Below are positions 44,969 through 63,003 of a stretch of DNA of 64,000 bases, in pieces (position 1 is the stretch's first letter; each line of letters begins with the position of its first letter). Source of the DNA: Candidatus Eiseniibacteriota bacterium (GTDB taxonomy: Bacteria > Eisenbacteria > RBG-16-71-46 > CAVPCR01); the NCBI GenBank assembly GCA_963823555.1, contig CAWGMA010000002.1, forward strand, positions 448,001 to 512,000, read 5' to 3'. Made by a program: the position numbers and the translations under genes. The notes under the pieces were generated by a model, which was given only the letters and a program-made list of their open reading frames with translations, was not told the DNA's origin and made no database searches.

Positions 44969-47900
44969 TTACTGCGTCCCTCCGGGCTTCGCCGGCGCCT
45001 GGGTCGCGGTCGGCTTGACCTCGGGCGGCTGGGTCAGCGCCTTCCGCGGCTTCTTGACCTCCATGTCGGGTCCGGTGTGGCACTGCACGCAGAGCGTCCG
45101 GGCCTTGCCGTGGGTCAAGAGCTGCGGGATGTCGCCCGAATGCGGGTTGTGACAGGACGAACAGGTGATCGGGTCTCCCGTCCGCGGGTCGAGGTCAGGA
45201 CCCGTGAAGGGATGCGAGTGCTTCTCCGCCGGGTTGTGGCAGGTCGAGCACAGGTTCTCCTGCGAGTCGACGAGGATCCCCTTGGTCTCGCTCCCGTGCG
45301 GGTTGTGGCAGTTGAGGCACTCCGTCATGCCTGGATGCTGCACCTTGCCCGTGAAGAGCTTCCGGTCGTGACAGGAGAGACATGTCTGCTGAACGTCCTC
45401 GCCCGAGAGGAGCTTGGCCGTTCGCGCCACGTGCGGTGAATGGCACGAAACGCACGCCTCCTGGGTCTTGAGCGGGGCATGAACGACCGCCTTCTCGGCG
45501 TCCTTGGCGTGGTCGTCGTGGCAGGCGGCGCAGAGGGCGATGCCCTCGGCCACGAGCCCGGTCTTCCCGGCGTGGCACGACTCGCAGCTCCCTTCGGCGT
45601 AGGGGGCATGCGCGTTGGCGAGCATGAGCCCCTTCTTCCCGGAGCCGTGCGGATCGTGGCACGAGGTGCAGTCGCCGGATCCGGCCTGGTAGCCGCGATG
45701 GGCCGTCGTGAAGGCTGAGGTCTTCGTGTCGTGGCACTTGGCGCAGCCCTCGCGGATCGAGGTGGCGAGGAGCCCCTTCACCGCGCCGACATGGGGTTCG
45801 TGGCAGGTCGTGCACTCGCCCGCGCGCGCCGGCTGATGGGCGTTGGCGCCACTGGCGCGCTCGGTGACATCCTTGTGGCAGTCGGCGCACAGGCCGGGAA
45901 CCGCCTTGGCGAGGAGGCCGGGCATGATGCCGTCGTGCCCGCCATGGCAGGTGCGACACTCGCCATCGCGCACGGGAGAGTGCACGAGATCGGGCTCGGC
46001 GGTCGCCACTTGCGTCACGACATCGCCATGGCAGCCGGCGCAGAGCCCCGGAGTCGCCTCCTTCAGGAGCTTCTCGGTGCCCGTGGCGTGAGCGTTGTGA
46101 CAGCTCGAGCATTCGCCCATCTCGACCGGGGCGTGCAGCGTGCGCCCCGCCGGCTTCTCGATCGCCCCATGGCAGGAGCCGCAGAGCTCCGCCTCGACGG
46201 AGACGAGCTGCGGCTTCATGCCGGCGACCGCTGGCTTGTGGCAGGTCGAGCAATCCCCTTCGGCGAAGGGTGCGTGCTCGGCGAACTGGATGAGGCCGCG
46301 CTTGTCGCTGCGGTGCGGGTCGTGACACCCGGTGCAGGAACCGTCCTCGACCACGAACTCGCGGTGTGCCTTCTTGAGCTCGCCCGAGCTCGGATCGTGG
46401 CAGGAAGAGCACGCCGCCGCGAGGCGGATCTTGCCGTCCGCGTCCTTGGTCTTGTGGCCGTCGTGGCAGGTCAGGCACTGGCCTTGCTTCACCGGTTCAT
46501 GGACCACGCCGACCGCGACGCTGTCGCGCATCGCCGTGTGGCAGGAGAAGCAGAGGTCGGAGCCCGTCTTTTGCAGCAGGCCTTTCGCGCTCTCCGACGC
46601 GTGCGGGCTGTGGCAGGAGCTGCACTGGCCGGCGGCGAGAGGTTCGTGCATCTCCGCCGTGGTCACGTTGGCGGCGACATCGCCATGACAGCTTCCACAG
46701 AGCTCACCTTGATTCGCCGTCAGGAGCTGCTTCTCGGTTCCGGCGTGCGGCAGGTGGCACGTCGCACAGCCCTCGGTGAAGGGTGGATGTTGAGCGGCGA
46801 GCTGTCGCTCATCGAGCTGCGCCGGGTGGCATCCGATGCACATCCGGAGCTCGGTGGTGCGGAGAAGACCGGCGTTGGCCGCCCCGTGGGCGTCGTGGCA
46901 CATGTTGCACTGCCCCGCATAGAAGGGCAGGTGGACGACCGGTTGCTCGAGCTGGGTTGCGACCTCGCCGTGACAGGTGCCGCAGGTCTCATCGAGCGTC
47001 GCCTTCATGAGGAAGGGCTCGCTGCTCGCATGGGCGCCGTGGCAGGCGTCGCAGTCGCCCTCCATGGGCGGGTGCTTGACTGCAGCAGCCGCGACCGCAT
47101 CGGTGACACCGGTGTGGCAGGACCGGCAAAGGGCCTCGACCGGCTGCCGGAGCATGGCTGCGCCACCACCATGGGCGCCGTGGCACTGGTCGCACCGGAA
47201 CTCCTTGAGCGGCGCGTGCACGGAGGTCTGCGCCAGCTGATCCCGGATCCCGCCGTGACAGGCGAGACAGAGCTCCTCGCCGCTCCCGCGCAGGAGCCCT
47301 GGCCGCTCCGCGTTGTGCGGCGAGTGGCACTGGAGGCATTCACCGGCGGCCGCCGGCGGATGCCCTCCCGCCGCCATCGCCACGTCCTTCACGTCCGAGT
47401 GACAGGTGAGGCAGAGCTCCTCGCGTGAAGCGACGAGCGCCTCCGGGTTCGCCGGGAGCCCCGAGTGACAGGTCGCGCACTCGCCCTGGGCGTAGGGCGC
47501 GTGGACATAGGAGCTGCCTTCCTCCGCACTGCCGGCGTGCGGATCGTGGCAGGATGAGCAGGATGCGCCCGCCACTTCAGGTCGAGCATGGAGTTCCGGC
47601 AGCTCCGTCGCTTGACCGTGGCAGCGGGCGCAAATCTCCTTCTCGGGGGCGAGAAGCAGCTTCGGCGGCCGGGGCGTCATGGGGCGCATGGCAGGCGGCG
47701 CAGTTTCCCTCGGCGAAGGGCGGGTGCTGCTTCTCGGCCTTGAGCGCGGCACCGATCTTGGTGTGGCAGGCGGCGCAGGCCTCCGCGGTGCTCGCTCCCC
47801 GCATCAGCCCCTTCACGTCCGAGGCATGCGAGTCGTGGCAGGAGGCGCAGCTCACCCCCTCGATCTCGAGATGCTGGGAGACGGCTCCCGGCGTGGCCAC

Positions 47901-48188
47901 CACGTCGCCATGACAATCGGTGCAGAGCTGGGGGAAGTCCTTCTGCAACGTGAGCTTCTGCTCGAATCCGTGACGCTTGTGGCAGGACTCGCAGTCCTCC
48001 TTCTTCACCGGGTCGTGCACGATCTTCTTGTTGTAGGCCTCGCGGGCATCCTTGTGGCATTCGTAGCAGGGCCGCCCGGCCGCCTGTGCGTCCCGATCCC
48101 CAACCATCAAGAGGAGACCGGCGGCGACGAGTGCCCACAGAATGCACGCGGCTCCGGAACCCACGACGCCACGGGCGCGCGCGATCAT
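44969..48188 (-). CDS. Giant multiheme cytochrome c, 42 CxxCH (paired-CxxCH type; frameshift at ~47672)
   Basis: Signal peptide plus 6 CxxCH in ORF 47577-48509 (ATG 48188) and 36 CxxCH in ORF 44969-47752; repeating 'H-x-P...CxxCHxxH...CxxCH' units. Confidence 0.92.
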
Positions 48189-48742
48189 CACTTTTCCTCC
48201 TTCGTGACAGTGGGGGGCACGGAGGGGGAGTCCGCCTTGTAACCGTTCACCTCCTTGAGCTGGAAGCTCCAGAAGGAATTCGGGGAGAAGTGGGGCGGGA
48301 AGTTCTGGAATGCCCAGGTCGAATCCACCGCCCCCGAGTCCCCATAGACATAGATGTGTACGGCCGGGTTGTTGAGCGCGCTCGAGGCGCTCAGGAACTG
48401 GCCTTGATCGATGATGAAATCGGGAAGGAAGCGCGTGACCCTGGCGCTGAACTCGGTATCTCCGATGTAGAAGGTCTCGTTCAGGTGAACCCGGTTCTCC
48501 TCGCGCCACTCGGGATAGAGCCGGCTGCCGGTCACGATCGAGAACGTGACGCTCGTATCGACCTCACCCCCGGCCGCGCGCACGGCGTCGGGAGCGGGGA
48601 CCATCGTCGAGTCGGCGAGGATGGCTGTCTCCTCCGCGGCCGGGGCGACCGGTCCGGGAAGCGAGTGGGGTGGGGTTTGCGCTCGCCCGGCCCAGCCCCA
48701 GAGGACGAGGAGCAAGCTCGCGCCGAGGGTCCAGGTCTTCAT
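48188..48742 (-). CDS. Periplasmic hypothetical protein (DUF2155-like)
   Basis: Signal peptide; 'FLPDF...S.S...NPAV.I.V...W.F.NFP'; stop overlaps the next start codon. Confidence 0.65.
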   Translation of the reverse strand: MKTWTLGASLLLVLWGWAGRAQTPPHSLPGPVAPAAEETAILADSTMVPAPDAVRAAGGEVDTSVTFSIVTGSRLYPEWREENRVHLNETFYIGDTEFSARVTRFLPDFIIDQGQFLSASSALNNPAVHIYVYGDSGAVDSTWAFQNFPPHFSPNSFWSFQLKEVNGYKADSPSVPPTVTKEEK

Positions 48743-48746
48743 GCCT

Positions 48747-49387
48747 TCACTCCGTGCTTCCTGTGGTCTGGGGGGTGGCGCCACGTCCGGCCCCCCCGGT
48801 GGTGGGGAAGGTCTCGAGCATCTCCTGCACGGCGATCGTCGCCATCTGCTCGAGGCTCTGCACGCGGCCGAAACCGAAGACCGACTCGCCATCGCCCCCG
48901 TCACGGCTGTGCACCGCGCTCCACAGCACGCGCCCGCCTGGGGTCTCGAGCAAGCGGAGCGAGAGCGAGATCTGGGGGATCATCTCCCCCTCGAACTGCC
49001 GGGTCGTGTAGCCGGTCAGCGATCCCACCATGATCGCGTTGGCGCCGAGCTCCTGCCCGACCGAGTCCACGAGGTCGGGGAGGCGATCGAGCATGAGCCA
49101 TGGCTCCTTGGCGAGCGCGGCCTGTCCACCTCGCCCTGATCCACGATCTGAACCCCCGGCTTCTGCGCCAGCTCGACCGTCAGGATCGGCAGCACGCGAT
49201 CGGCGGCATCGCGGTTCGAGGTGTAGTTGGCGAGGGGCAGGATGGCGATGCGCCAGGTTCCGGCCAGCGGCTGGGCGATGTAGACCTGTGGTTTGGGCCC
49301 GCATCCCGCCAGCGAGGCGAGAAGGCGAGCTGCGACCACCGCCAGGGCGGCAAGCGAAACTCGATGCGACCGATCGTGCGCTCTCAT
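48747..49387 (-). CDS. Lipoprotein, CsgG/TolB-N/GNA1162-like (frameshift at ~49125)
   Basis: Lipobox LAGC; 'IAILPLAN'; 'LSLRLLETPGGRVLW'; split between ORFs 49016-49933 and 48747-49304. Confidence 0.75.
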
Positions 49388-49388
49388 G

Positions 49389-50000
49389 TCACTGTCCCTG
49401 CGGCAAGGTTGACAGGATATCCCGCGACATGTCCGCGGTGAGCTCGCCCATGGTGTGCACCTCGCCGAAACCGAAGATGGGGAAGCCCGGTCCGCCACGC
49501 CGGGTCCGGCTCCCGGTCCACACGATGCGACCGGATGCGGTGTCCACCAGCCGCACCTCGAGCGAGAGCAGGGGGTAGCTGTCGCGTCCCACTCGCTCCA
49601 TCGTGTAGTCCCGCACCGCGCCCATGAAGACGCCCTGGACTCCCATCTCCTCGCCGAGCCGCGCGAGCTCCTCGCTCGACCAGGGGTTCGTGACCGGAGT
49701 GCCGCCCCGCAGCGCGAACATGGAGGCGACGAGCTGACCCGGTTCGACGACCTGGGCGAACCCCCTGCGCAGGAGCTCCGTGAAGAAGACGTCCGCGACC
49801 TTCTGCCCGGCGAGCTGATCCTGGGCCAGGGAGTTGAACGGGGCAACGGCCACCCGCTCGTAGTAACCGAGATCGGCCTCTTCATCCACGAAGTGGGCGG
49901 GCCCCGCACAGGCGGAGACGAGAAGGGCCACACAGAATACGGCGCCTATCCCCCTCAGCGACTCCACCCGGCGAGCTCTGTCTGTCCTCTTTGTCTTCAT
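49389..50000 (-). CDS. Lipoprotein, CsgG/TolB-N/GNA1162-like
   Basis: Lipobox VSAC; 'VAVAPFN'; 'LEVRLVDTASGRIVW'; paralog of the next gene. Confidence 0.8.
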   Translation of the reverse strand: MKTKRTDRARRVESLRGIGAVFCVALLVSACAGPAHFVDEEADLGYYERVAVAPFNSLAQDQLAGQKVADVFFTELLRRGFAQVVEPGQLVASMFALRGGTPVTNPWSSEELARLGEEMGVQGVFMGAVRDYTMERVGRDSYPLLSLEVRLVDTASGRIVWTGSRTRRGGPGFPIFGFGEVHTMGELTADMSRDILSTLPQGQ

Positions 50001-50030: not shown

Positions 50031-51685
50031 TCAGAAGTCCTTCTGCAAGTTGGCGGAGTAGTAGCGGCTCCGCGGCCCGTTCTGCTGCTCCACCTGCTGC
50101 GTGCTCAGGAGCACGCGGAACTCACGGGGCAGCCAGAAACCCAGATCGAAACCAAAGAGTCTCTCCTCGCTCTCGAAGGACCGCAAGCGGGAACGCCGGC
50201 GCTCCCAGTTCGCCGCCAGCGTGACCTCGCGCGTGGCGGTCCATGAGGCGTTGAGGCTGGTGACGTTGTCCACGCGGATGACGAGCCCCTCGGCCGTATC
50301 GCGCCGGTGGGACGCCACGAAGCTGAAGTTCTGCGTCGGGTTGTAGCCGAGCAGGAGGTCCCACTGCCGCGTGCCCTGGCGCAGCCCGGCGAAGTCGGGC
50401 TGGGAGAGACGCGTCCAGGTGATGTCGAAGCGCGTCGTGGGTACCGGTACCGTGCGCAGCTGGAGGAGCTGGCGCGACTGATCGCGGCGGATATCGGTGC
50501 TGCTGTCCCGCTGGTAGCTCGCCTCGGCCCGACCGGCCATGCCGCGGAGGATGGGTCCGTCCAGCATGGCATAGACCGAGTTGGTCGGGATCCCGGCTCG
50601 GTTCTCCGAGCTGTCCTTGATCCGCTCCGTCCTCCGGAAGCCGGCCAGGAGCTCGACGCGCCGCCAGACCTGGTCACGGAATGTCGTCTCGAAGCGCAGG
50701 TAGTCGGCGATCAGGCGCCCTTGCACCTCGTTCGTCTGCCGGTAGTCGCGGGCCAGCTGGAAGGTGAGCGGCACGATCGGCTGGTACTGGACGCCGGCGC
50801 TCAGGAAGGTCTCATCGGTATCGATGGGCAGGGGGAAGGCGTTGTCATCGGTGGACTGCCAGCGCTGGAGGGCGGTTCCGAAGAGGGAGACCGAGCGCGC
50901 GGGACGCCAGTTGAGGGCCGCATTGATGCGATGGGCCTCGAGATCGCGGCGTCGCTCGCGGGCGCTGAAGTCGCTCAAGAGGACATCGTAGTCGGCGCTC
51001 AGACTCACTCGCCTGATCGTCGGTCCGGCCCCGGACTCCGGCGCGCAGCTCCTCGGTGACCTGATCGACGCCGTTGGGCCGCCGGTCATCCGCGTCGATG
51101 CGCCGGAGGCCCACGAATCCGCCCACGTCGTCGGTGCCATAGGAGAGTTCCGCGCGACGGTCGTCGTTGGCCGAGGGGCCGAGGCCGATCTCGCGCTCGC
51201 GGTGCTGCCATTCGGCAAAGAGGTTGGGAAGATTGCGGGGCGTGACCCGGACATTGATGTAACCGAAACGCTCCTTGGCCGGGTCGGGGCCCGGCGACAC
51301 CTCTTGCCACGGTGTGAACTGACCTTCGAGGCGCCAGGTCTGGGCGATCAGCTCCCCCTGGAATCGGTAGCGGAAGACATCGCCGTCACTCACTCCCAGC
51401 TCGCTCAGGTAGCGCAGGAACGCGCGCAGCCTGAGGTCGAGCCCGGCCGGGGGTCGTGCCCCGCGTCCACATGTCGAGCTGATGCTGCATGGTGTCGATG
51501 GTCTGATCGCCGAAGATCGTCGTGCCCGTGAGATCGTTGCGTGTGATGGACCCGATGTAGCGACCGTCGATCTCCATCCCCCTGGCGGGCAGCGCGACCA
51601 TCGCGACCAGCGAGGAGCAGGCGCAGATCACGAGCGGGATCGCGATCTTCCTTCCCGGTGCGCTCCATCGCCGGCCTGGCATCAT
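50031..51685 (-). CDS. Outer-membrane beta-barrel (frameshifts at ~51450 and ~51020)
   Basis: Signal peptide; alternating amphipathic strands; C-terminal 'YYSANLQKDF' beta-signal; pieces in ORFs 51386-51928, 50845-51393 and 50031-51254. Confidence 0.75.
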
Positions 51686-51689
51686 GGGA

Positions 51690-52871
51690 TCAGTACCCGA
51701 TCTCGATCCCGCCCGGTTCACCCGAGGCCGGCCGGTGGACGTTGAACCCGGTGGCGCTCGAATAGTCGCGGCCGTGGCAGTCGTGGCAGCCCTGGGTCGC
51801 CGAGGCTCTGTGTGCGCCTCCTGGTCCGAGATCGCGTTCATGACGATGCCCTCGACCGTCTCCGAGTCCCGGGATGCCGTCCGCCGGGATGTGGCAGCCG
51901 AAGCAGAAGCGGCGGTTCTGCTCGGCATCGCCAGGGTGTCGGTGAGGCCGCTCCAGCCGACGACGCTGATCGCTGATCAGGAAGGCGTTGGGCTGCGACC
52001 CGATTGTTGCCCTTCGGAACCGTGCGGGTTGTGGCAGTCGTAGCAGGGCAGCTTGTCGCCGACCTGGATGTGCGGCCGGCCAGGAGAGGGCGACGTTGGA
52101 GTTGCGACGGATCTGGTGGCCGGCCGACGCTCGCCGTTCAGCCCGCTGTCGTAGTAGTCCTCGATGTAGCGGTTCTCGGTGATCCATCCCGGACGGACCG
52201 TCGGCGCCGTGGCAGGAGAAGCAGAGGCCGTAGCTCGCCGGTGGCGCCCGATCCCGGCGTGGCCGCTGATCCCGCCATAGAGGGCGACCAGGATGTCGCG
52301 CGGGTTCTCGGTGCCGTGCGGGTCGTGGCAGTTGAGGCAGAGGCCCTGCCCGGCCGCGTCCTGGCGCGGCATGTCGGGATCGTGTGGCGTGCGGGGAGAT
52401 CGTAGTGGCCGGCGGCGGTGACCCGCGGGTCGGTGTAGACGACCTCTCCCGGCCAGCGTCCCCGGAACTCGACGCCCGCGCGCCGGATGCCGCCCGCGTT
52501 GGCCTCGAAGTAGCCGGCATCGGGCTCGGTGTCCGGCATGCGGTCGATCTCGCCGAGCGGGTAGTTCGTGGGCCGGGACTGGTGACAGGGGCGGGCGCCG
52601 TCGGCCCAGAAGGCCAGGCGGTTGGTCGTTCTCGGTGAAGAGGTTGCTGGCCGAGGGGGACGCGCCGGCATCAGCCTCGTGGAACGCGTGGCACTGCGTG
52701 CACTCGCCGCGCGTGGGCGATTCGGTCACCTCGCGGAGGACACCGGTGGCGGGATCCCCGTGCGGATCATGGAGGAGTTCCTGTGCCAGTGACCCAGGCG
52801 GTCAATCCCAGGACCGCCGTGAGGACCATGCCGGAAGTGGTCTCACCGGTCGCTTTCATCGGCCGAAGCAT
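51690..52871 (-). CDS. Multiheme cytochrome c, 6 CxxCH plus one atypical site (multiply frameshifted)
   Basis: Across frames: CTQCH, ..ARPCH, CLNCH, CFSCH, CYDCH, CFGCH, CHDCH. Start uncertain. Confidence 0.75.
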
Positions 52872-52977: not shown

Positions 52978-53004
52978 GAGCCCGGAGCGCTACCGCCCGG
53001 GCTC
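52978..53004. other. Intercistronic stem-loop after the OmcS-like gene
   Basis: GAGCCCGG...CCGGGCTC inverted repeat. Confidence 0.45.
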
Positions 53005-53021: not shown

Positions 53022-54130
53022 CTACCAGGGATCGCGGTCGCCACCCTGGCGGTGGCACTGGCGGCAGCTGTTGCGAGCGTCGAGCGCCGTCGTCGCCCTG
53101 CTCCGTCACCGTTCCGGTCCCGACCATGTAGATCAGGCCGAACGCGTTCTGGTTGCCGTGCGACTTGTGGCACGACATGCAGGACGGGGTGAGCTCGGTG
53201 TCGGTGCCGTCGTAGCCGGTGGCCGAGCCGTAGGGCTTCGGCTTCTGGCCGGTCGGCGACATCACCTGAACCTGGTTGCCCTTGGCCGACGAGCGGTGGC
53301 GAGCGAGGAGTGCCCGCCGCCAGCGGCGCCGATGTTGACACCACCGGACGGGTGACGGACGAACTCCTCCGCCGGAGCGCCGATGCCGCCGATCTCGGGA
53401 CCGCCCACGTCACCGTGGAAGTTGGTGTGGCAGTTCTTGCAGCACGTTGGCGTAGGCCGACTTGCTCTGGTCAGGCTCGTTGAACGTGATGGCCCCGACG
53501 CCGTAGTGGTTGGCGTTGGTGCCACCCGAGACGTCCTCGTAGACCCAGGCGCCGAGGTCGTTCGCAGCCTCGACGTCACCGCGGGTGTAGCTGATGCTGG
53601 TGGACGTCCCGCCATCCACGAACAGGTTCCGGTAGCCGCCCTGGGCCGCATGGCTCCGGTCGAGCCGCGGCGTCCGACCGTGAACGGAGTGGCAGTTGGC
53701 GCAGTTCAGGCCATCCGGGTTGGCGAAGGTGCCGCCGGGAGCGATCGTCCGTCGAGCCGAGCGTGTGCCCGGTGGGCGGCGGATACAGGCCGTTCCCGCC
53801 GACCTCGTTCAAGGCGCCCGCCTGCCGGACGTAGCCGTTGCTGTGCGCTTCGAAGACGTCCGGAGCGAACGCCTGCCCGTCGTGACAGCCGAGGCAGAGA
53901 TCGTTGATGTCGTTCCGGAGCAGGTAGTGGTACGGGCCGTCGGCGCAATGGGACCATAGTTGCCCGTGCCGTTCGGGTTGTAGCCGTGCGACTGGCTGTA
54001 GTGCATGACATGGCAGTCCTGAGCAGATCAGGCCGACCCCGAAATGGTAGTCGCCGGCGAAGCCGACGGCGGCGAATGCCACCATGGCCAGCCCGACTCC
54101 CATCGCGGTCAAGAGACGCTTTAGGTTCAC
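53022..54130 (-). CDS. omcS: OmcS-like hexaheme cytochrome c (about 6 frameshifts)
   Basis: GGAGGT RBS, GTG, signal peptide. Reconstructed: DYHFG..CSDCHVMH, CLGCH, GHTL..APGGT..LNCANCHSVHG, GGYRNL, CKNCHTNFH, RHP, CMSCHKSHG, CRQCH. Symbol indicates homology only. Confidence 0.78.
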
Positions 54131-54165
54131 GTGAACACCTCCTGGTGGAGAAACCCGTCCCACCC

Positions 54166-55225
54166 TCAGGGCTCGGCCGTCGCCGAGTCCTCCGGATTGG
54201 ACGGAAGGCCAGAGAGTTCCAGGTTGATGACCTGACAGCGGGCACCAGCCCGTTCCAGGACCACCAGCTGGTCCTCGGCCAGAAATGCGCAAGCGGCCGG
54301 GTAGTAGAACTCGCCGGGTCCCTCGCCATAGCCCCCGATGCGCCCGCGATACCCGCCCCGGGAATCGAAGATGCTGATCGAGTGCCGGATCGTATCGGTG
54401 ACCCAGAGGGTGCTCTCCGGGCCATAGACGGCGTGGACCGCCATCGAGAACGTGCCGTCGCCGTCGCCGTGCTCTCCGAACTGGGCGAGGAGCGAGCCAC
54501 CGATCGTGTAGACCGAGATCTGGTACTTGGCCTTGGGGTCGGTGATCGCGATCTCGGTTTCGTCCGGGTTCACGGCAATGGCGATGGGGCCGATCCAGGC
54601 GCCGGTGTCCGTCTCGGGGAAGCCGAGCTGCCCCACGAAACTTCCATCGTGCTCCAGGATCATGACGCCCGAGCGAGCGCCCGAGCAAAGGAGGTAGATG
54701 CGACCGCTCCTGCCGATCGCGATGGCCGAGGGCCTGGTCTGGCCCTCGAGCTCGGCAGGAAGAGCGGGGTGCAGGATGCCGAGATGCGAGCCGCGGGGGC
54801 TCAGGACCTCGACATCGGCATTGGTGGCATCGACGACGAACATGCGGCCGCGGCGATCCAGGGCGAAGGAGGCGGGGTCGACGATGCCGCCCGACGCGTC
54901 CCATGGGGTCGTAGCGCACGGCGCCGCGCGAGCGCCCCGTCTCGTCGAAGGTGACGATGCGGCTGTTTCCGGTGTCGGAGACGAGGAAGACCCCCCGCGC
55001 CGAGTCGGCGGCGATGCCGCGGGGCCGGCGGAAGACGTCCAGGGCCGAGGGGCCGTAGAAGATGGTCTCGACGGAGCGGATGGAGGGGGCAGCAGAAGAA
55101 GCCTCATCGCCAAGCGCGCCATGCGCGGGGGCGGTGAGGCTCAAGATCGCGAGGAGGGCTCCCAGCGGGAGAAGGAGGCTCTTCGACGCGCGGTGACCCA
55201 AGTCTGCGTTTCCCCTGCCAATCAA
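54166..55225 (-). CDS. NHL-repeat beta-propeller (frameshift at ~54910)
   Basis: Signal-like N-terminus; 'F.RPRGIA.D', 'VSDTGNSRI', 'FGEHGDGDGTF', 'GGYGEGPGEFYYP'. Start uncertain. Confidence 0.85.
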
Positions 55226-55752: not shown

Positions 55753-58591
55753 ATGAAGCCCTCCTCCTTCCGGGTTTCCGTCCTCCTTCTCTTCGCGTTC
55801 TTCCTGACCGCCGCTCCCACCCCGGCGCAGATGCACCAGGGCGGGCACATCCTCGGGCTTGTCGCCGATGACAGCGGCCGGCCGATCGCCGGAGCGCGGG
55901 TCGCGGCGAGTTACGGCCGCCCCGATATGCCGCCCATGCCGCCCCGACTCCGGGTTGGTTGTGACCCGGACCGACCGGGATGGCCGCTATGACCTCGATC
56001 TTCCTTTCCCTGGCTGCTACCTGGTGCACGCCGGTGCCGAGGGTGTGCAGGGTCTCTTCTATCCCGGCGTGCCCGATCCGTGGAGTGCCATCTGTATTCC
56101 GCTCGAGGGGGGAGCCGTGGTGCGGGGGATCGACTTCCGGCTCGGTCCGGCCGGCGCGATCGCCGGCCGCGTCACGGACGAGCGGAGCGGAGCGCCGATC
56201 GCCGGGGCCGTCGTCGCGGCGTGGCCGGCCTTCGATGATTCCACCGGTGGCGGCACCGTGCCTCCGCCCGGTGGCGGCGGGCAGACCCCACCTGGTGGTG
56301 GCGGCGGCTATCCCGAGTTCTCCGGCGGCCGGGCGATCACGGCTCGTGACGGCACCTACCTGATCGAGGGACTTCCCGCCGGCGACTACTTCGTTCGCGC
56401 CGAGGCCGAGGGCCACATCGCAGAATTCTACGATGATGCGCTATTTCCTGATGAGGCGACTCCGGTTGCCGTGACCGCGCCCGGCACGACGAGCGGCATC
56501 GATTTCGCTCTCGGGCGCGGCGGATGCATTCTCGGGCGTGTCGTCGACGCCGCGACCCGCGAGCCGATCGCCGGGGCGGTCGTGGCCCTGGATGGCATGG
56601 TCTGGCCGGAGCCACCGCCCGGGCCCGAACCGCCGCCCGGGCCCGAACCGCCGCCCGGCCCGGAGCCGCCGCCGCCCGGGCCCGAACCGCCGCCGCCCGG
56701 CCCGGAACCTCCGCCCTTGCCGCCGACCGAGCCAGAGCCGGGCGAAGGCGGTGTCGTGTATCCGGAGCAGGTGCACGCGATCACGGGGCCCGACGGCACC
56801 TACGAGCTATGCGGCCTCGCCCCCGGCGATTACTTCCTCCACGCGCGGGCACGCGGCTACCTCGTCGAGTTCTACAACGAGGCTGCTTGCCGCCGCGATG
56901 CGGATCCGATCTCGGTGCCTCGCGACGGCGATGTGACGGGCGTCGACTTCACGCTCGATCGCGGCGGGCGCATCGAGGGCACCATCTTCGCCGATCGCGG
57001 ATTCGCGCCCGGGGCCTGGGTGCATGCCTATCCGGCGCGGACGGACTCCACCTTCCCCGAGCCCTTGCCGCCCGAGCCGTGGCCGCCGCTCGAGTGCGGT
57101 CCAGTTCACGGCGGCCGCGCGATCGCCGATTCGTCCGGCCACTACGTGATCGCTGGGCTCGCCTCGGGGGACTATCTCGTCCTGGCCGAGCTCCCCGGCT
57201 ACCTGCCGACGTTCCACGGCGGGGGGCAGGATCCGGGCGCGGCGACACCGGTCACCGTGACGGCGCCGGATGCCACGACCGGTATCGACATCCAGCTCGA
57301 ACGCGGTGGCGTCCTCTCCGGTGTCGTCCGCGACCAGGAAAACGGAGCGCCGATCGCCCGCGCGTGGGTCGAGCTCTATTTGCCCACCATGGGGCCCGGC
57401 TATCCCGGCGGCCCCACCTACCCGAGCGATCCGCCTTACCCCGGTGACCCATCGCTGCCCGGCGACCCCGATCATCCCGACTGGCCGCCATGGGGCGGTC
57501 CGCTCCCCGGTCCCTTCGCCGCGCCGACCGACGAGCGCGGCGCCTACCGCATCGAGGGGATTCCGAGCGGCGAGTACATCGTCTTCGCCTCAGCCTTCGA
57601 GCAAGGCTATGAGCCCGAGTTCTTCCGCGAGGCGCGCTCGCCCGAGACGGCGACCCCGGTCGCGGTCCGTGCCCCGGGCGAGACGCCGGACATCGATTTC
57701 ACGCTCTCCCGCACCCGGCCCGGGGAGGGTGGACTCGGCGGACGAGTCGTCGCTGCGGAGAGCGGTGAGCCGCTCGCGAGCGCGGTCGTGGTCGCGATCT
57801 CGCTCGCCGGTCAGGCCGGCTTCGGGGTCAGCGATTCGACCGGGTTCTACTGGATCCCGGCGCTCGGCGCCGGCGAGTACTTCGTGCTCGCTGCAGCCCC
57901 CGGACGCCTGGGCGAGTTCTACGACGGCGTCACGAGCTGGGAGTACGCCACCCCCGTCTTCGTACGGGAGCCGGTCTCGGGGATCGACTTCTCGCTCGAT
58001 CTCCTCGTCGCCGGACCCGGCGTCATCACCGGCCGGGTGGTCGATGCGGGCGGCGGCGGTGTGGCTCAGGCCTGGGTCTACGCCGAGCCGATCGACCAAG
58101 GATCACCCGGGTTCACCACCAGCGGGTCCGACGGCCGTTACACGCTCGCCGGGCTCGCGGCCGGCACCTACTTCGTGCGCGCGACACGACCCGGCATGAG
58201 CGACGGCTATCACACGAACATGCCGGACCAGCCGGCGGCGATTGCAGTGGCGGGGACCCCGCTCTCGGGAGTCGACATCGTCCTCGGCCAGGGCGTGCCG
58301 CCCGCCGGCGGTTCGGTTCGTCTCGAGCCGAGCGTGCCCAATCCGTTCCGCGACGAGACCGCGATCCGGGTCACGGTCGAGAGCGGCGGCGTGCCGCTCA
58401 GCGTCGACATCGTTGACGTCACCGGCCGGCTCGTCAGGCGCTACCAGGTAGCGCAGGCGACGATGGGCACGAACTCAGTCGTCTGGGACGGCAAGGACTC
58501 GGCGGGCCGGCTGGCCCCGAGCGGGGTGTACGTCTGCCGCGCCACGGCAAACGGCAAGGTGGTGACCGGGCGCCTCGTGCTGCTCCGGTGA
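55753..58591 (+). CDS. Secreted protein with tandem carboxypeptidase-regulatory-like (Cna-B-like) repeats and FlgD-Ig CTD (frameshift at ~55940)
   Basis: Signal peptide in ORF 55753-55992; about 7 repeats of 'G.I.GRV.D..G.PIAGA.V...GxY...EFY...GIDF.L'; CTD. Confidence 0.85.
56606..56717 (+). repeat. In-frame 18/21-bp tandem repeat encoding (PEPPPG)3(PEPPPPG)2PEPPP
   Basis: Read directly from the sequence. Confidence 0.85.
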
Positions 58592-59840: not shown

Positions 59841-59929
59841 CAGGCGGTGCTCGCCCACGCCCGATTTCGCGGGCCTCGCGCGGCGTTCTTTCCTGGTCCA
59901 GCCGGCCGGCCGCGCCTATAATGCGCCCC

Positions 59930-60814
59930 ATGCTTGGCTCCCGGTCCCGCCGAGTCGTCATGATCCTCGTCCTCCTCCTCGCCACCTGCTCCGTGGCGTG
60001 GGCGGAGGGGGATGCGGCCGACGAACCAGCCGTCCCGGAAACCCGCTGGTTCGCCACCGAGCGGCTCAACATCTTCATCCCCTTCGTCATCTTCACCGGG
60101 CTCGTGGGTTCCTTCATCGCGCTCGCCCGACGCGGCTCCCAGCTCTTCGTGCGCCGCATCGCCGGGCTCGACGCCATCGACGAGGCCATCGGCCGCGCCA
60201 CCGAGATGGGTCGTCCCATCCTCTACTCACCCGGCCTCGACGAGATGGATCAGCCGGGCACCGTGGCCTCGATCAATATCCTGGGCCAGGTCGCCGAGAA
60301 GGCGGCCACGTATGACTCGCGTGTCACCGTGCTCAACCGCGACCCGATCGTGATGAGTGTCGCCCAGGACGTGGTCAGGAGCGGCTACCTGCGCGCCGGA
60401 CGCCCCGACCTCTTCCGTGAGGAGGATGTCTTCTACGTCACCTATAGCCAGTTCGGGTATGCAGCGGGGGTGGCCGGCTTCATGGTGCGCGAGCGGCCCG
60501 CAGCCAACTTCTTCCTCGGCCGTTTCTATGCCGAGTCGCTGGTGATGGCCGAGACCGGACAGACCACGGGCGCCATCCAGATCGCGGGCACCGACTCCGA
60601 TGCCCAGCTCCCCTTCTTCATCACCGCCTGTGACTACACGCTGATCGGGGAGGAGCTCTACGCCGCCTCGGTCTATCTGGCGCGGGAACCGCTGCTCCTC
60701 GGGAGCCTGAAGGCCCAGGACATGGCCAAGCTCCTGATCATCGTCTTCATCGTGCTGGGTGTGGTCGGCGGGTTCCTGGGCGTGTCCCTCGACTTCTGGA
60801 CGGCCGCCGGATAG
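59930..60814 (+). CDS. DUF6754-like membrane protein
   Basis: 'RRIAGLDAIDEAIGRATEMGRP', 'FYAESL', 'QLPFF...CDYTLIGEELYAAS.YL'. Start may be 59921. Confidence 0.8.
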   Translation: MLGSRSRRVVMILVLLLATCSVAWAEGDAADEPAVPETRWFATERLNIFIPFVIFTGLVGSFIALARRGSQLFVRRIAGLDAIDEAIGRATEMGRPILYSPGLDEMDQPGTVASINILGQVAEKAATYDSRVTVLNRDPIVMSVAQDVVRSGYLRAGRPDLFREEDVFYVTYSQFGYAAGVAGFMVRERPAANFFLGRFYAESLVMAETGQTTGAIQIAGTDSDAQLPFFITACDYTLIGEELYAASVYLAREPLLLGSLKAQDMAKLLIIVFIVLGVVGGFLGVSLDFWTAAG

Positions 60815-60830
60815 GGGAGGGCGAGGACGC

Positions 60831-61490
60831 ATGCTCCAGCGCACCGGACCCCTGGTCTTCGCCATCGTCTTCGGCGTCTTCATGGCGCTCCAGTACTTCA
60901 TCCCGCACCCCGCGATCGTCCGCTTCTACAACCTGGTCCTCGACTGGAAGCAGGTCGTCTTCGGCTGCACGCTCACCCTCGGCATCTTCAGCCTCCTCCG
61001 CTTCCATGGCCGCAAGGTGGCGCGCCGGGACCGCGGCGCCTTCTTCAGCGGGGTCGCCCTGGTGTCGTGCCTGGCCACGGTCGCCTGCGGCATCTTCTTC
61101 GGCATCGAGACCGGACCCTATCGCTGGCTCTTCGATCGCGTGCAGGCCCCGATGCAGGCGACCCTGTTCTCGATGCTCGCCTTCTTCGTCGCCTCCGCTT
61201 CCTATCGGGCCTTTCGCGCCCGCTCGGTCCACGCCACGCTGCTCCTCGTGGCCGGCTGCATCGTGATGCTGGGACGGGTGCCGACGGGTGATCTCATCGG
61301 CTTCGACGTGGGCGGGGCGCGCTACTCGCTCGCCGGGCTCGCGAGCTGGCTCCTCGACATTCCGAATCTTGCGGCAAAGCGCGGAATCCTGATCGGGGTC
61401 GGCCTCGGCATGATCTCGACCTCGCTCCGCATCATCCTCGGCATCGAGCGCGCGTACCTCGGACAGTCGCGCCAGCAAGGTGGATCATGA
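60831..61490 (+). CDS. Uncharacterised multi-TM protein
   Basis: About 6 TM helices; 'LAFFVASASYRAFRAR', 'AAKRGILIG', 'LRIILGIER'. Confidence 0.8.
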   Translation: MLQRTGPLVFAIVFGVFMALQYFIPHPAIVRFYNLVLDWKQVVFGCTLTLGIFSLLRFHGRKVARRDRGAFFSGVALVSCLATVACGIFFGIETGPYRWLFDRVQAPMQATLFSMLAFFVASASYRAFRARSVHATLLLVAGCIVMLGRVPTGDLIGFDVGGARYSLAGLASWLLDIPNLAAKRGILIGVGLGMISTSLRIILGIERAYLGQSRQQGGS

Positions 61491-62377
61491 ACGGCGGCGG
61501 CAGAGAGCACGGCTGGGTCGAGCGCCTGGTGGCCTTCGATCGCCGCTGGATCTATCTCTTGATGGCGATCGCGGTCGCCTTGCCCATGCTCTTGCCGCTC
61601 AAGCTCCCGATCGTGGTCTCGAAGGAGGTCGCGGCCTTTCATCGCGAGATCGAGGCCTTGCAGCCTGGGGACGAGGCGTTGCTCTCGATCGACTATGAGC
61701 CCGATGTCATGGCCGAGCTCGATCCCATGACCGAAGCCGTTCTCGACCGCCTGTTCGCCAAGGGCGTCAAGGTCATCTGCATGACCAACTACGCGGGTGG
61801 AGTCGGGGTCGCCCAGCGCCAGCTCGAGGCGGCGGCCACACGTTATGGCAAGGTCGACGGCACCGATTATGTCTTCCTCGGTTACAACCCGGACTGGTCG
61901 GGCACCATGCTCCGTCTGGGGGAGAGCATCCGCGCCACCTTTCCGGTCGATCAGTTCGGGCACCCGACCAAGGACCTTCCGGTGCTGGCGGCGTGCAATG
62001 CCTACAAGGACATCGAGCTCCTGGTCTCGATCTCGGGGAGCGCGCTCTCCGAATACTGGGCGGCCTACGCCGGGGCGCGCTACGGGCAGCGCATGGTGTC
62101 GGGGAACACGGCGATCCAGGCCATCTTCATCTATCCCTTCTTCCAGTCCGGACAGATCAAGGGTTTCCTCGGCGGGCTCAAGGGGGCGGCGGAGTACGAG
62201 ACCTTGATCGAGCGCCCGGCCTTCGGTGTCCGCGGCATGGGCTCGCAGTCGGCGGGGCACATCCTCATCGTCGCCGCCGTCATCCTCGGCAATGTCGGCT
62301 ACTTCGCCATGCGGAAGCGGGGCACCGCGACGAGCGGCAACCGTCTCAAGAGCCTCGATCCGGAGGGCCGCTCATGA
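61487..62377 (+). CDS. Uncharacterised membrane-anchored protein
   Basis: N- and C-terminal TM helices; 'YVFLGY', 'YPFFQSGQI.G.LGGLKGAAEYE'; ATGA overlap. Confidence 0.8.
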   Translation: MNGGGREHGWVERLVAFDRRWIYLLMAIAVALPMLLPLKLPIVVSKEVAAFHREIEALQPGDEALLSIDYEPDVMAELDPMTEAVLDRLFAKGVKVICMTNYAGGVGVAQRQLEAAATRYGKVDGTDYVFLGYNPDWSGTMLRLGESIRATFPVDQFGHPTKDLPVLAACNAYKDIELLVSISGSALSEYWAAYAGARYGQRMVSGNTAIQAIFIYPFFQSGQIKGFLGGLKGAAEYETLIERPAFGVRGMGSQSAGHILIVAAVILGNVGYFAMRKRGTATSGNRLKSLDPEGRS

Positions 62378-63003
62378 GCGCCGACGTGAGCATCTGGATC
62401 ACCGCTCTCCTCACGCTCGCCATCTTCTCCTTTCTCTACAAGGAGAACCCCGTCTTCCGCTTCGCCGAGCATCTCCTCGTCGGCGTGTCAGCCGGGTACT
62501 ACGTCGTCCAGTACTTCTACTCGGGCGTGATCAAGAAGCTCGTGGTCCCGGTGGGGCAGGACTTCGGCGCCAACTGGCCGCTCATCTTCGGCGGTGTCCT
62601 CGGCGTTCTCATGTTCACGCGTCTGTCGCGCCGCTTCGGCTGGGCGGCGCGTTACCCGATCGCCTTCTACGTCGCCGCGGGTGCCGGCTACTTCATCCCC
62701 TCGATTCTCGATGCCAACATCCTGAAGCAGGTGGGGGGTACGCTGACCGCCCCCGCGGCGGCGACGAGCCCGTGGGCCATGGTCTCGGCCTTCATCCTGG
62801 TGGCCGGCGTGATCTCGAGCCTCATCTACTTCTACTTCTCGGTCGAGCACCGGGGCCCCGTGGGCACGGCATCGCGGATCGGCATCCTGTTCCTGATGCT
62901 CGGCTTCGGTGCCAGCTTCGGCTACACGGTGATGGGGCGTATCACGCTCCTGATCGGCCGCTTCCAGTTCCTGTTCCACGACTGGCTGGGGTTGATCCAG
63001 TAG
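62374..63003 (+). CDS. Uncharacterised multi-TM protein
   Basis: 'TLAIFSFLYKENP.FR.AEHLLVG', 'FGASFGYTVMGR'; ATGA overlap. Confidence 0.8.
   Translation: MSADVSIWITALLTLAIFSFLYKENPVFRFAEHLLVGVSAGYYVVQYFYSGVIKKLVVPVGQDFGANWPLIFGGVLGVLMFTRLSRRFGWAARYPIAFYVAAGAGYFIPSILDANILKQVGGTLTAPAAATSPWAMVSAFILVAGVISSLIYFYFSVEHRGPVGTASRIGILFLMLGFGASFGYTVMGRITLLIGRFQFLFHDWLGLIQ

Follow-up and report, generated by a model that had tools for sequence, protein, structure and literature searches.

A compact OmcS-type hexaheme cytochrome gene beneath six probable assembly frameshifts in an Eisenbacteria genome

The closest described relative of the cytochrome discussed here is the filament-forming hexaheme protein OmcS of Geobacter sulfurreducens (GSU2504; PDB 6EF8 and 6NEF). 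The excerpts of PMC6584659 on its heme sites give OmcS 12 histidine ligands, one of which is supplied by the neighbouring subunit and serves heme 505. For the osc (omcS-companion) operon of Shen et al. 2025, excerpts of PMC13194489 propose a part in folding and secreting OmcS wires, and three other OmcS-like hexahemes, OmcT, GSU2501 (OscC) and OmcJ, two of them encoded in the omcS operon, are presented as functionally uncharacterised in the relevant portion of PMC12977616. According to excerpts of the respective papers, OmcS homologues outside Geobacter have already been published (PMC10954620, PMC12307469, PMC12954529), an OmcS annotation exists for a Krumholzibacteria genome (10.1101/2020.09.22.307553), and Eisenbacteria genomes carry iron-cycling genes (PMC8478452). 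Here we examine a 64,000-nucleotide stretch of DNA from a Candidatus Eiseniibacteriota genome (contig CAWGMA010000002.1, positions 448,001 to 512,000; hereafter the window), whose minus strand carries, at 53022-54130, fragments of a single cytochrome gene spread over three reading frames. The evidence supports assigning this gene to the OmcS family, and its breaks are very probably errors of the assembly.

A DNA search of 41 genomes located a copy 74% identical in a genome of the same genus (G001), where the orthologue (L002:1666-2766) is an open frame of 366 amino acids (aa) with six CxxCH motifs. Frameshift-aware alignment of this orthologue with window positions 53025-54121 (minus strand) passes through six shifts, at about 54019, 53945, 53746, 53442, 53293 and 53085, and covers 357 codons at 70% identity with no in-frame stop. 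The seven resulting pieces add up to some 368 residues and contain six CxxCH motifs; motif 1 is readable only across the break at 54019. An earlier note on this DNA, made from the sequence alone, had proposed just such a reconstruction; each shift falls within 3 nt of the site it gave, the length and motif count agree, and all the motifs that it quoted are present in the gene. The closest relatives of the gene carry the label Candidatus Eisenbacteria. The gene and its immediate signals are as follows.

53022..54130, minus strand: compact OmcS-type hexaheme cytochrome gene, about 368 aa including signal peptide, with six single-base frameshifts in the assembly (GTG start at 54130, TAG stop at 53022-53024)
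54053..54130, minus strand: Sec-type signal-peptide-like stretch, recognised by eye (basic N-terminus, hydrophobic core, ending ...GFAG before DYH; Kyte-Doolittle windows reach 2.3)
54138..54143, minus strand: Shine-Dalgarno-like AGGAGG read from the sequence, 7 nt before the GTG
52978..53004, minus strand: GC-rich hairpin without a U run, directly past the stop, a weak candidate for a transcript end or stabiliser (z -1.9; 9 of 200 shuffles equally stable)

Structures with z below -2 follow the hexaheme gene in 41% of 75 family loci and other genes of the cluster in 0-19%. Codon bias is higher in the hexaheme gene than in the preceding NHL propeller gene in 54 of 72 loci and higher than in lipoprotein A in 31 of 60, and thus does not single out the hexaheme consistently. 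At about 53216-53233 (minus strand) the window gene also carries an in-frame 18-nt insertion that is missing from all six aligned relatives.

Profile comparisons support homology to OmcS that extends beyond the CxxCH motifs. The family profile covers residues 1-405 of the 407 in 6EF8 (E 7e-25), and a structure model gives an OmcS-fold match for the family. Single-sequence PDB searches with the longest intact window piece and with the intact orthologue returned no OmcS match, which was recovered only by profile searches. We then aligned 60 compact-type hexahemes, about half of the 118 available, with 67 canonical-type proteins from omcS-type loci fetched from metagenomes, one of which was verified against 6EF8 (E 2e-171). 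Twelve histidine columns are 97-100% conserved in both clades, two of them partly by construction, as the canonical set was fetched by a motif that holds these two; 12 cysteine columns and 19 others are conserved as well. All 12 histidines are present in the window gene, a correspondence of columns that does not imply heme-by-heme assignment. The earlier note had allowed that the reconstructed protein might fail to align with OmcS outside the heme motifs or might lack the distal histidine ligands. Instead, the 19 conserved columns are neither Cys nor His, every distal histidine is kept, and the OmcS counterpart motifs that the note had quoted are found in the alignment to 6EF8.

The two proteins share six CxxCH motifs in the same order and register, the 12 histidines, an N-terminal H-x6-CxxCHxxH, GH(N/T), PGG, R-x-L and HP motifs, the overall fold, and an NHL propeller gene that precedes both. 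They differ in mature span, about 333 residues in the compact protein versus 414, and a filament has been demonstrated for OmcS alone. By profile and model, the window product is a bis-His hexaheme with the OmcS fold; it is predicted to be secreted and falls some 80 residues short of OmcS. In a FastTree phylogeny with a midpoint root, compact and canonical proteins form separate clades (support 0.91 and 1.0), which places the gene in a sister clade of OmcS proper rather than among its orthologues. The compact clade also lacks two histidines common in canonical proteins (84% and 69%). OmcT, GSU2501 and OmcJ are likened to the compact protein by description only; the 67 canonical-type hexahemes that were fetched form one clade apart from it. 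Across the first three heme motifs the family also resembles OmcE (PDB 7TFS and 9YUQ) weakly (E 5e-6 and 2e-5). In L045, L049, L086, L096, L099, L101 and L103, seven-heme paralogues are found beside or near the six-heme gene.

The neighbourhood of the gene is the second line of comparison with OmcS. Window and G001 share the order NHL, hexaheme, second cytochrome, barrel, two lipoproteins, p197 and 42-heme cytochrome, with the following window coordinates.

54166..55216, minus strand: NHL beta-propeller gene with one frameshift, near 54886; canonical omcS is preceded by a homologous NHL gene
51690..52855, minus strand: second multiheme cytochrome, 6 CxxCH, 14-16 frameshifts, with profile similarity to the hexaheme family
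50031..51668, minus strand: probable outer-membrane beta-barrel, about 540 aa, C-terminal Phe, two frameshifts
49389..50000, minus strand: lipoprotein A, DUF4136/CsgG-like, with a homologue in canonical omcS clusters
48747..49342, minus strand: lipoprotein B, LpoB/CsgG-like and single-domain; homologue of the canonical two-domain lipoprotein
48188..48658, minus strand: conserved small secreted protein p197 of no known family, start approximate
44969..48188, minus strand: 42-heme paired-CxxCH cytochrome, one frameshift near 47663, start approximate

Among 79 related loci, many of which end at contig edges, the NHL gene is found in 72, the second cytochrome in 47, lipoproteins A and B in 60 each, p197 in 49 and the large cytochrome in 60; the barrel, a divergent protein sought with a single sequence, is found in 15. 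The 42-heme protein keeps 126 of 126 motif residues, and its 42 hemes equal a 26+16 pair that is encoded by two genes in L050, L080 and L088. The second cytochrome matches the hexaheme family profile with an E value of 1.5e-12, which shared heme motifs may inflate. It has 5-9 motifs in most relatives and 12 in a few, and other lineages have 9- or 12-heme versions. Its second heme site is an extended C-x7-9-CH in many relatives; in the window, in G001 and in several close relatives the first Cys of that site is gone (LAFW...CH).

Canonical clusters (L122, L143, L149, L152, L167, L176 and L186) run in the order NHL, one or more hexahemes, YVTN propeller, barrel-like protein of about 740 aa, two lipoproteins, SurA-like peptidyl-prolyl isomerase (PPIase) and large cytochrome. 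The series NHL, hexaheme, barrel, two lipoproteins and very large paired-CxxCH cytochrome is homologous gene by gene, clearly so for the NHL (E 1e-16 to 1e-32 against canonical loci), lipoprotein and large-cytochrome genes, and distantly for the barrels (hhalign probability 94.5, E 8e-8, 211 columns). Searches of Pfam and the PDB gave no match for the barrel protein, whose fold we infer, and p197 has no match among the canonical loci. Where canonical clusters place a YVTN propeller of about 480 aa, the window has its second multiheme cytochrome, and a small p197-type protein stands in place of the SurA-like PPIase. Its barrel has 540 rather than 740 aa, its second lipoprotein has a single domain, and one 42-heme protein replaces a canonical 26+16 pair. 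In G. sulfurreducens GSU2494 has 16 hemes. GSU2495 has 26 (PMC12977616, in excerpt). The YVTN propeller is present in 7/7 canonical loci displayed and a PPIase-sized gene in all 6 that reach far enough, whereas among the 79 related loci the propeller occurs in 2 and a SurA-like gene in 3. Compact-type hexahemes accompanied by YVTN-propeller and/or SurA-like genes and by split large cytochromes occur in L050, L080, L088 and L106, labelled Acidobacteriota, Nitrospinota and Planctomycetota; these may be intermediates between the two cluster types.

We hypothesize, with a probability of roughly 0.55, that the gene's product is an OmcS-fold hexaheme which, once exported, assembles at the barrel into an extracellular heme wire that receives its electrons from the 42-heme cytochrome. 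The hexaheme would be exported by Sec and then receive its hemes from a ResB/CcsA system; genes for ResB and Cytochrom_C_asm (CcsA-type) proteins are present above cut-off in the window's assembly (G000). It might next pass through, or be anchored at, the neighbouring outer-membrane barrel, assisted by the NHL propeller and the two lipoproteins. Subunits would stack head to tail, such that the histidine after the first CxxCH of one completes the heme-5 site of the next. The product would be an extracellular heme wire supplied with electrons by the periplasmic 42-heme cytochrome, perhaps with the second cytochrome as a link.

How much weight can the histidine after the first heme motif bear? 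The earlier note had read its retention, as CxxCHxMH, to suggest polymerisation. The retention is genuine: of the 229 family members with six motifs, 225 have CxxCHxxH at motif 1, and the histidine aligned to the putative cross-subunit ligand of OmcS, taken to be His16 (an assignment that literature searches did not confirm), is kept in 114 of 118. As a sign of polymerisation the motif was overstated. The same pattern occurs at motifs 3 and 5 in 229/229 members and at 20 of the 42 motifs of the neighbouring large cytochrome; the partner cytochrome shows it at its opening motif in 49 of 51 loci, and the methionine is variable (111 M and 98 A among 229). Taken as a sequence pattern, CxxCHxxH alone is no demonstration of polymerisation.

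Several further points weigh against a wire. Identity to canonical OmcS-type proteins is 22-28%, in a clade of its own. The linker between motifs 5 and 6 has 39 residues versus 71 in canonical proteins, and this shortening probably gives the compact protein a different surface around what are the interface hemes in OmcS. Two histidines are specific to or enriched in the compact clade, H22 (87% vs 0%) and H216 (93% vs 64%), either of which could supply heme 5 with a ligand from the same chain. The window cluster has no YVTN propeller or SurA-like gene, and only short, weak, partial hits to them occur elsewhere in G000. The excerpted text of PMC12977616 names OmcS as the only one of four G. sulfurreducens hexaheme homologues known to form a wire, and states that OmcS models cannot resolve true wires outside that genus.

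These observations, together with the lack of specificity of the heme motif, lend themselves to a second explanation that we consider a serious contender, though less probable than the wire. An intact OmcS-fold gene could encode a monomer or short oligomer that serves a porin-cytochrome conduit as its outer or its periplasmic cytochrome, likened to the uncharacterised OmcT, GSU2501 and OmcJ, so that the compact protein would resemble the 3/4 Geobacter paralogues that lack a demonstrated filament (PMC12977616, same excerpts). Against this stand the position of the gene, directly after the NHL gene as omcS is in canonical loci, and the finding of no second full-length OmcS-type gene in G000. The family retains the N-terminal H-x6-CxxCHxxH register, with the six-residue spacing in 177 of 181 proteins, and the tendency of a hairpin to follow the gene, which would suit a product that is made in excess, points weakly in the same direction.

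A more elaborate version of the wire, though an unlikely one, is that OmcS-fold nanowires come in a second, compact class whose subunit interface differs and whose export set is minimal. The adjacent cytochrome would then be a cap or anchor that donates the last histidine and joins the filament to the barrel. As part of the same tentative proposal, the hosts of this class would be Eisenbacteria and the related uncultured Krumholzibacteria, Latescibacterota, Zixibacteria, and some Gemmatimonadota and Ignavibacteria. The second cytochrome begins with its own CxxCHxxH module and, lying between subunit and barrel, could be a cap or anchor as discussed for OmcE. In the excerpts of PMC13712944, OmcE clusters also contain propeller lipoproteins, multiheme cytochromes and a large barrel, and an anchor for cytochrome nanowires is described as proposed and not convincingly identified.

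Both the wire and the conduit presuppose a working gene, and we regard it as nearly certain that the gene is intact in the living organism and that errors in the consensus of this assembly (4 contigs, 92% complete) produced the six breaks. In a DNA alignment with six relatives, the extra or missing bases at the break sites are unique to the window. The hexaheme keeps 18 of 18 CxxCH motif residues and shows no rate acceleration; it lies as near to five outgroups (0.68-0.72) as does the intact G001 gene (0.66-0.69). The ratios of nonsynonymous to synonymous polymorphism (pN/pS) of the two broken cytochrome genes, 0.48 and 0.35, lie inside the range of neighbouring genes. Short-read contigs of relatives, not of this strain, give an independent comparison among the best 32 of 388 records, 24 of which overlap the gene and 20 of which lie within it. 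Of the latter, all 13 that span a break differ in length from the window by a frame-restoring amount and all 7 that span none have a length difference of zero; among pieces extending beyond the gene, 3/4 fit and 1/4 does not. The earlier description of the gene as cryptic accordingly does not hold as biology: errors of the assembly very probably account for the breaks, and many other genomes have a normal call for the gene.

The frameshifts are unevenly distributed, and this weakens any simple argument from a noisy genome. Among control genes in G000, 77 of 95 are intact at 0.19 shifts per kb, which indicates that errors gather in local hot spots, of which the cluster is one, and rules out a uniform genome-wide error rate. 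Homopolymer or GATC-methylation context was also rejected as the cause (6 and 7 of 69 sites, at or below background). That the consensus recorded both alleles of mixed strains as insertions is only hinted at: 11 of 18 rpoB insertions permit two synonymous readings, versus 0.36 simulated (p about 0.03). Gap counts at the DNA level against G001 are too noisy at 70-75% identity, and G001 is an imperfect reference whose own rpoB is broken.

Could the cluster be a genuine, very recent pseudogene of this lineage? We consider this improbable, and it keeps a small residual weight because the errors are local and not genome-wide. In its favour, shifts concentrate in two adjacent cytochrome genes (6 and 14-16) while most controls are intact, the family is patchily present in the phylum (64/206 genomes), and a search for reads of this strain found none (best share 0.15). 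Yet about 20 frameshifts across the two cytochrome genes come with 0 stops, 36 of 36 motif residues, neighbour-like pN/pS and no rate acceleration. The same kind of hot spot affects essential genes: rpoB of this assembly (G000:C3:543300-548800) lies in 10 pieces with 19 frameshifts (18 insertions), and 5 more shifts, again insertions, fall in the scored part of rpoC. Bacterial pseudogenes usually show deletion bias, the opposite of the excess of insertions seen here. Programmed frameshifting or slippage-type phase variation, which has nothing in its favour beyond the intact protein-level signal, can be dismissed as extremely improbable, given six different sites in non-repetitive contexts, 6/69 sites near a homopolymer of at least 4 (close to the background of 0.058) and no break common to any of the six aligned relatives.

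Judged by sequence matches, the hexaheme gene is an ordinary one within its phylum, because the family (E<=1e-20) is found in 64 of 206 genomes, a few of these matches being weak paralogue hits, and internal stops occur in the G000 copy alone. The share among good-quality genomes is 43 of 121, and a set of 8000 scored candidates contained 1007 homologous proteins. The window copy is therefore an assembly artefact laid over a variant of a known system, and by itself adds little beyond the intact copies in other genomes. A literature search turned up no account of the compact clade or of its cluster; Shen et al. 2025, together with its supplements, lay outside that search and may cover these phyla. 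Contigs from RNA libraries of relatives (three studies) lie on the gene; mostly less than 90% alike and found with this gene, they can neither rank expression nor name a habitat and are used for neither.

If the compact family does polymerise, about one third of the sampled Eisenbacteria genomes (64/206) would belong to candidate nanowire producers, as would several other uncultured phyla, with a bearing on iron cycling and interspecies electron transfer. The smaller gene set would then offer a useful minimal system for learning which osc genes export and assembly need. Regardless of polymerisation, there is a practical lesson in that local error hot spots can conceal entire genes, among them rpoB, in a 92%-complete assembly of 4 contigs.

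Three other regions deserve mention. A second multiheme region of the genome, at G000:C4:286000-302000, lies beside resB/ccsA and encodes cytochromes with 4, 14, 9, 5 and 11 motifs, with a barrel-like gene between them. Divergent from the cluster, window positions 55859-58591 (plus strand) encode a secreted protein with CarboxypepD_reg repeats, a PEPPPG repeat and a C-terminal FlgD-Ig domain. Finally, a run of membrane-protein genes at 59921-63003 (plus strand) starts with a DUF6754 gene, and its order is conserved in G001.
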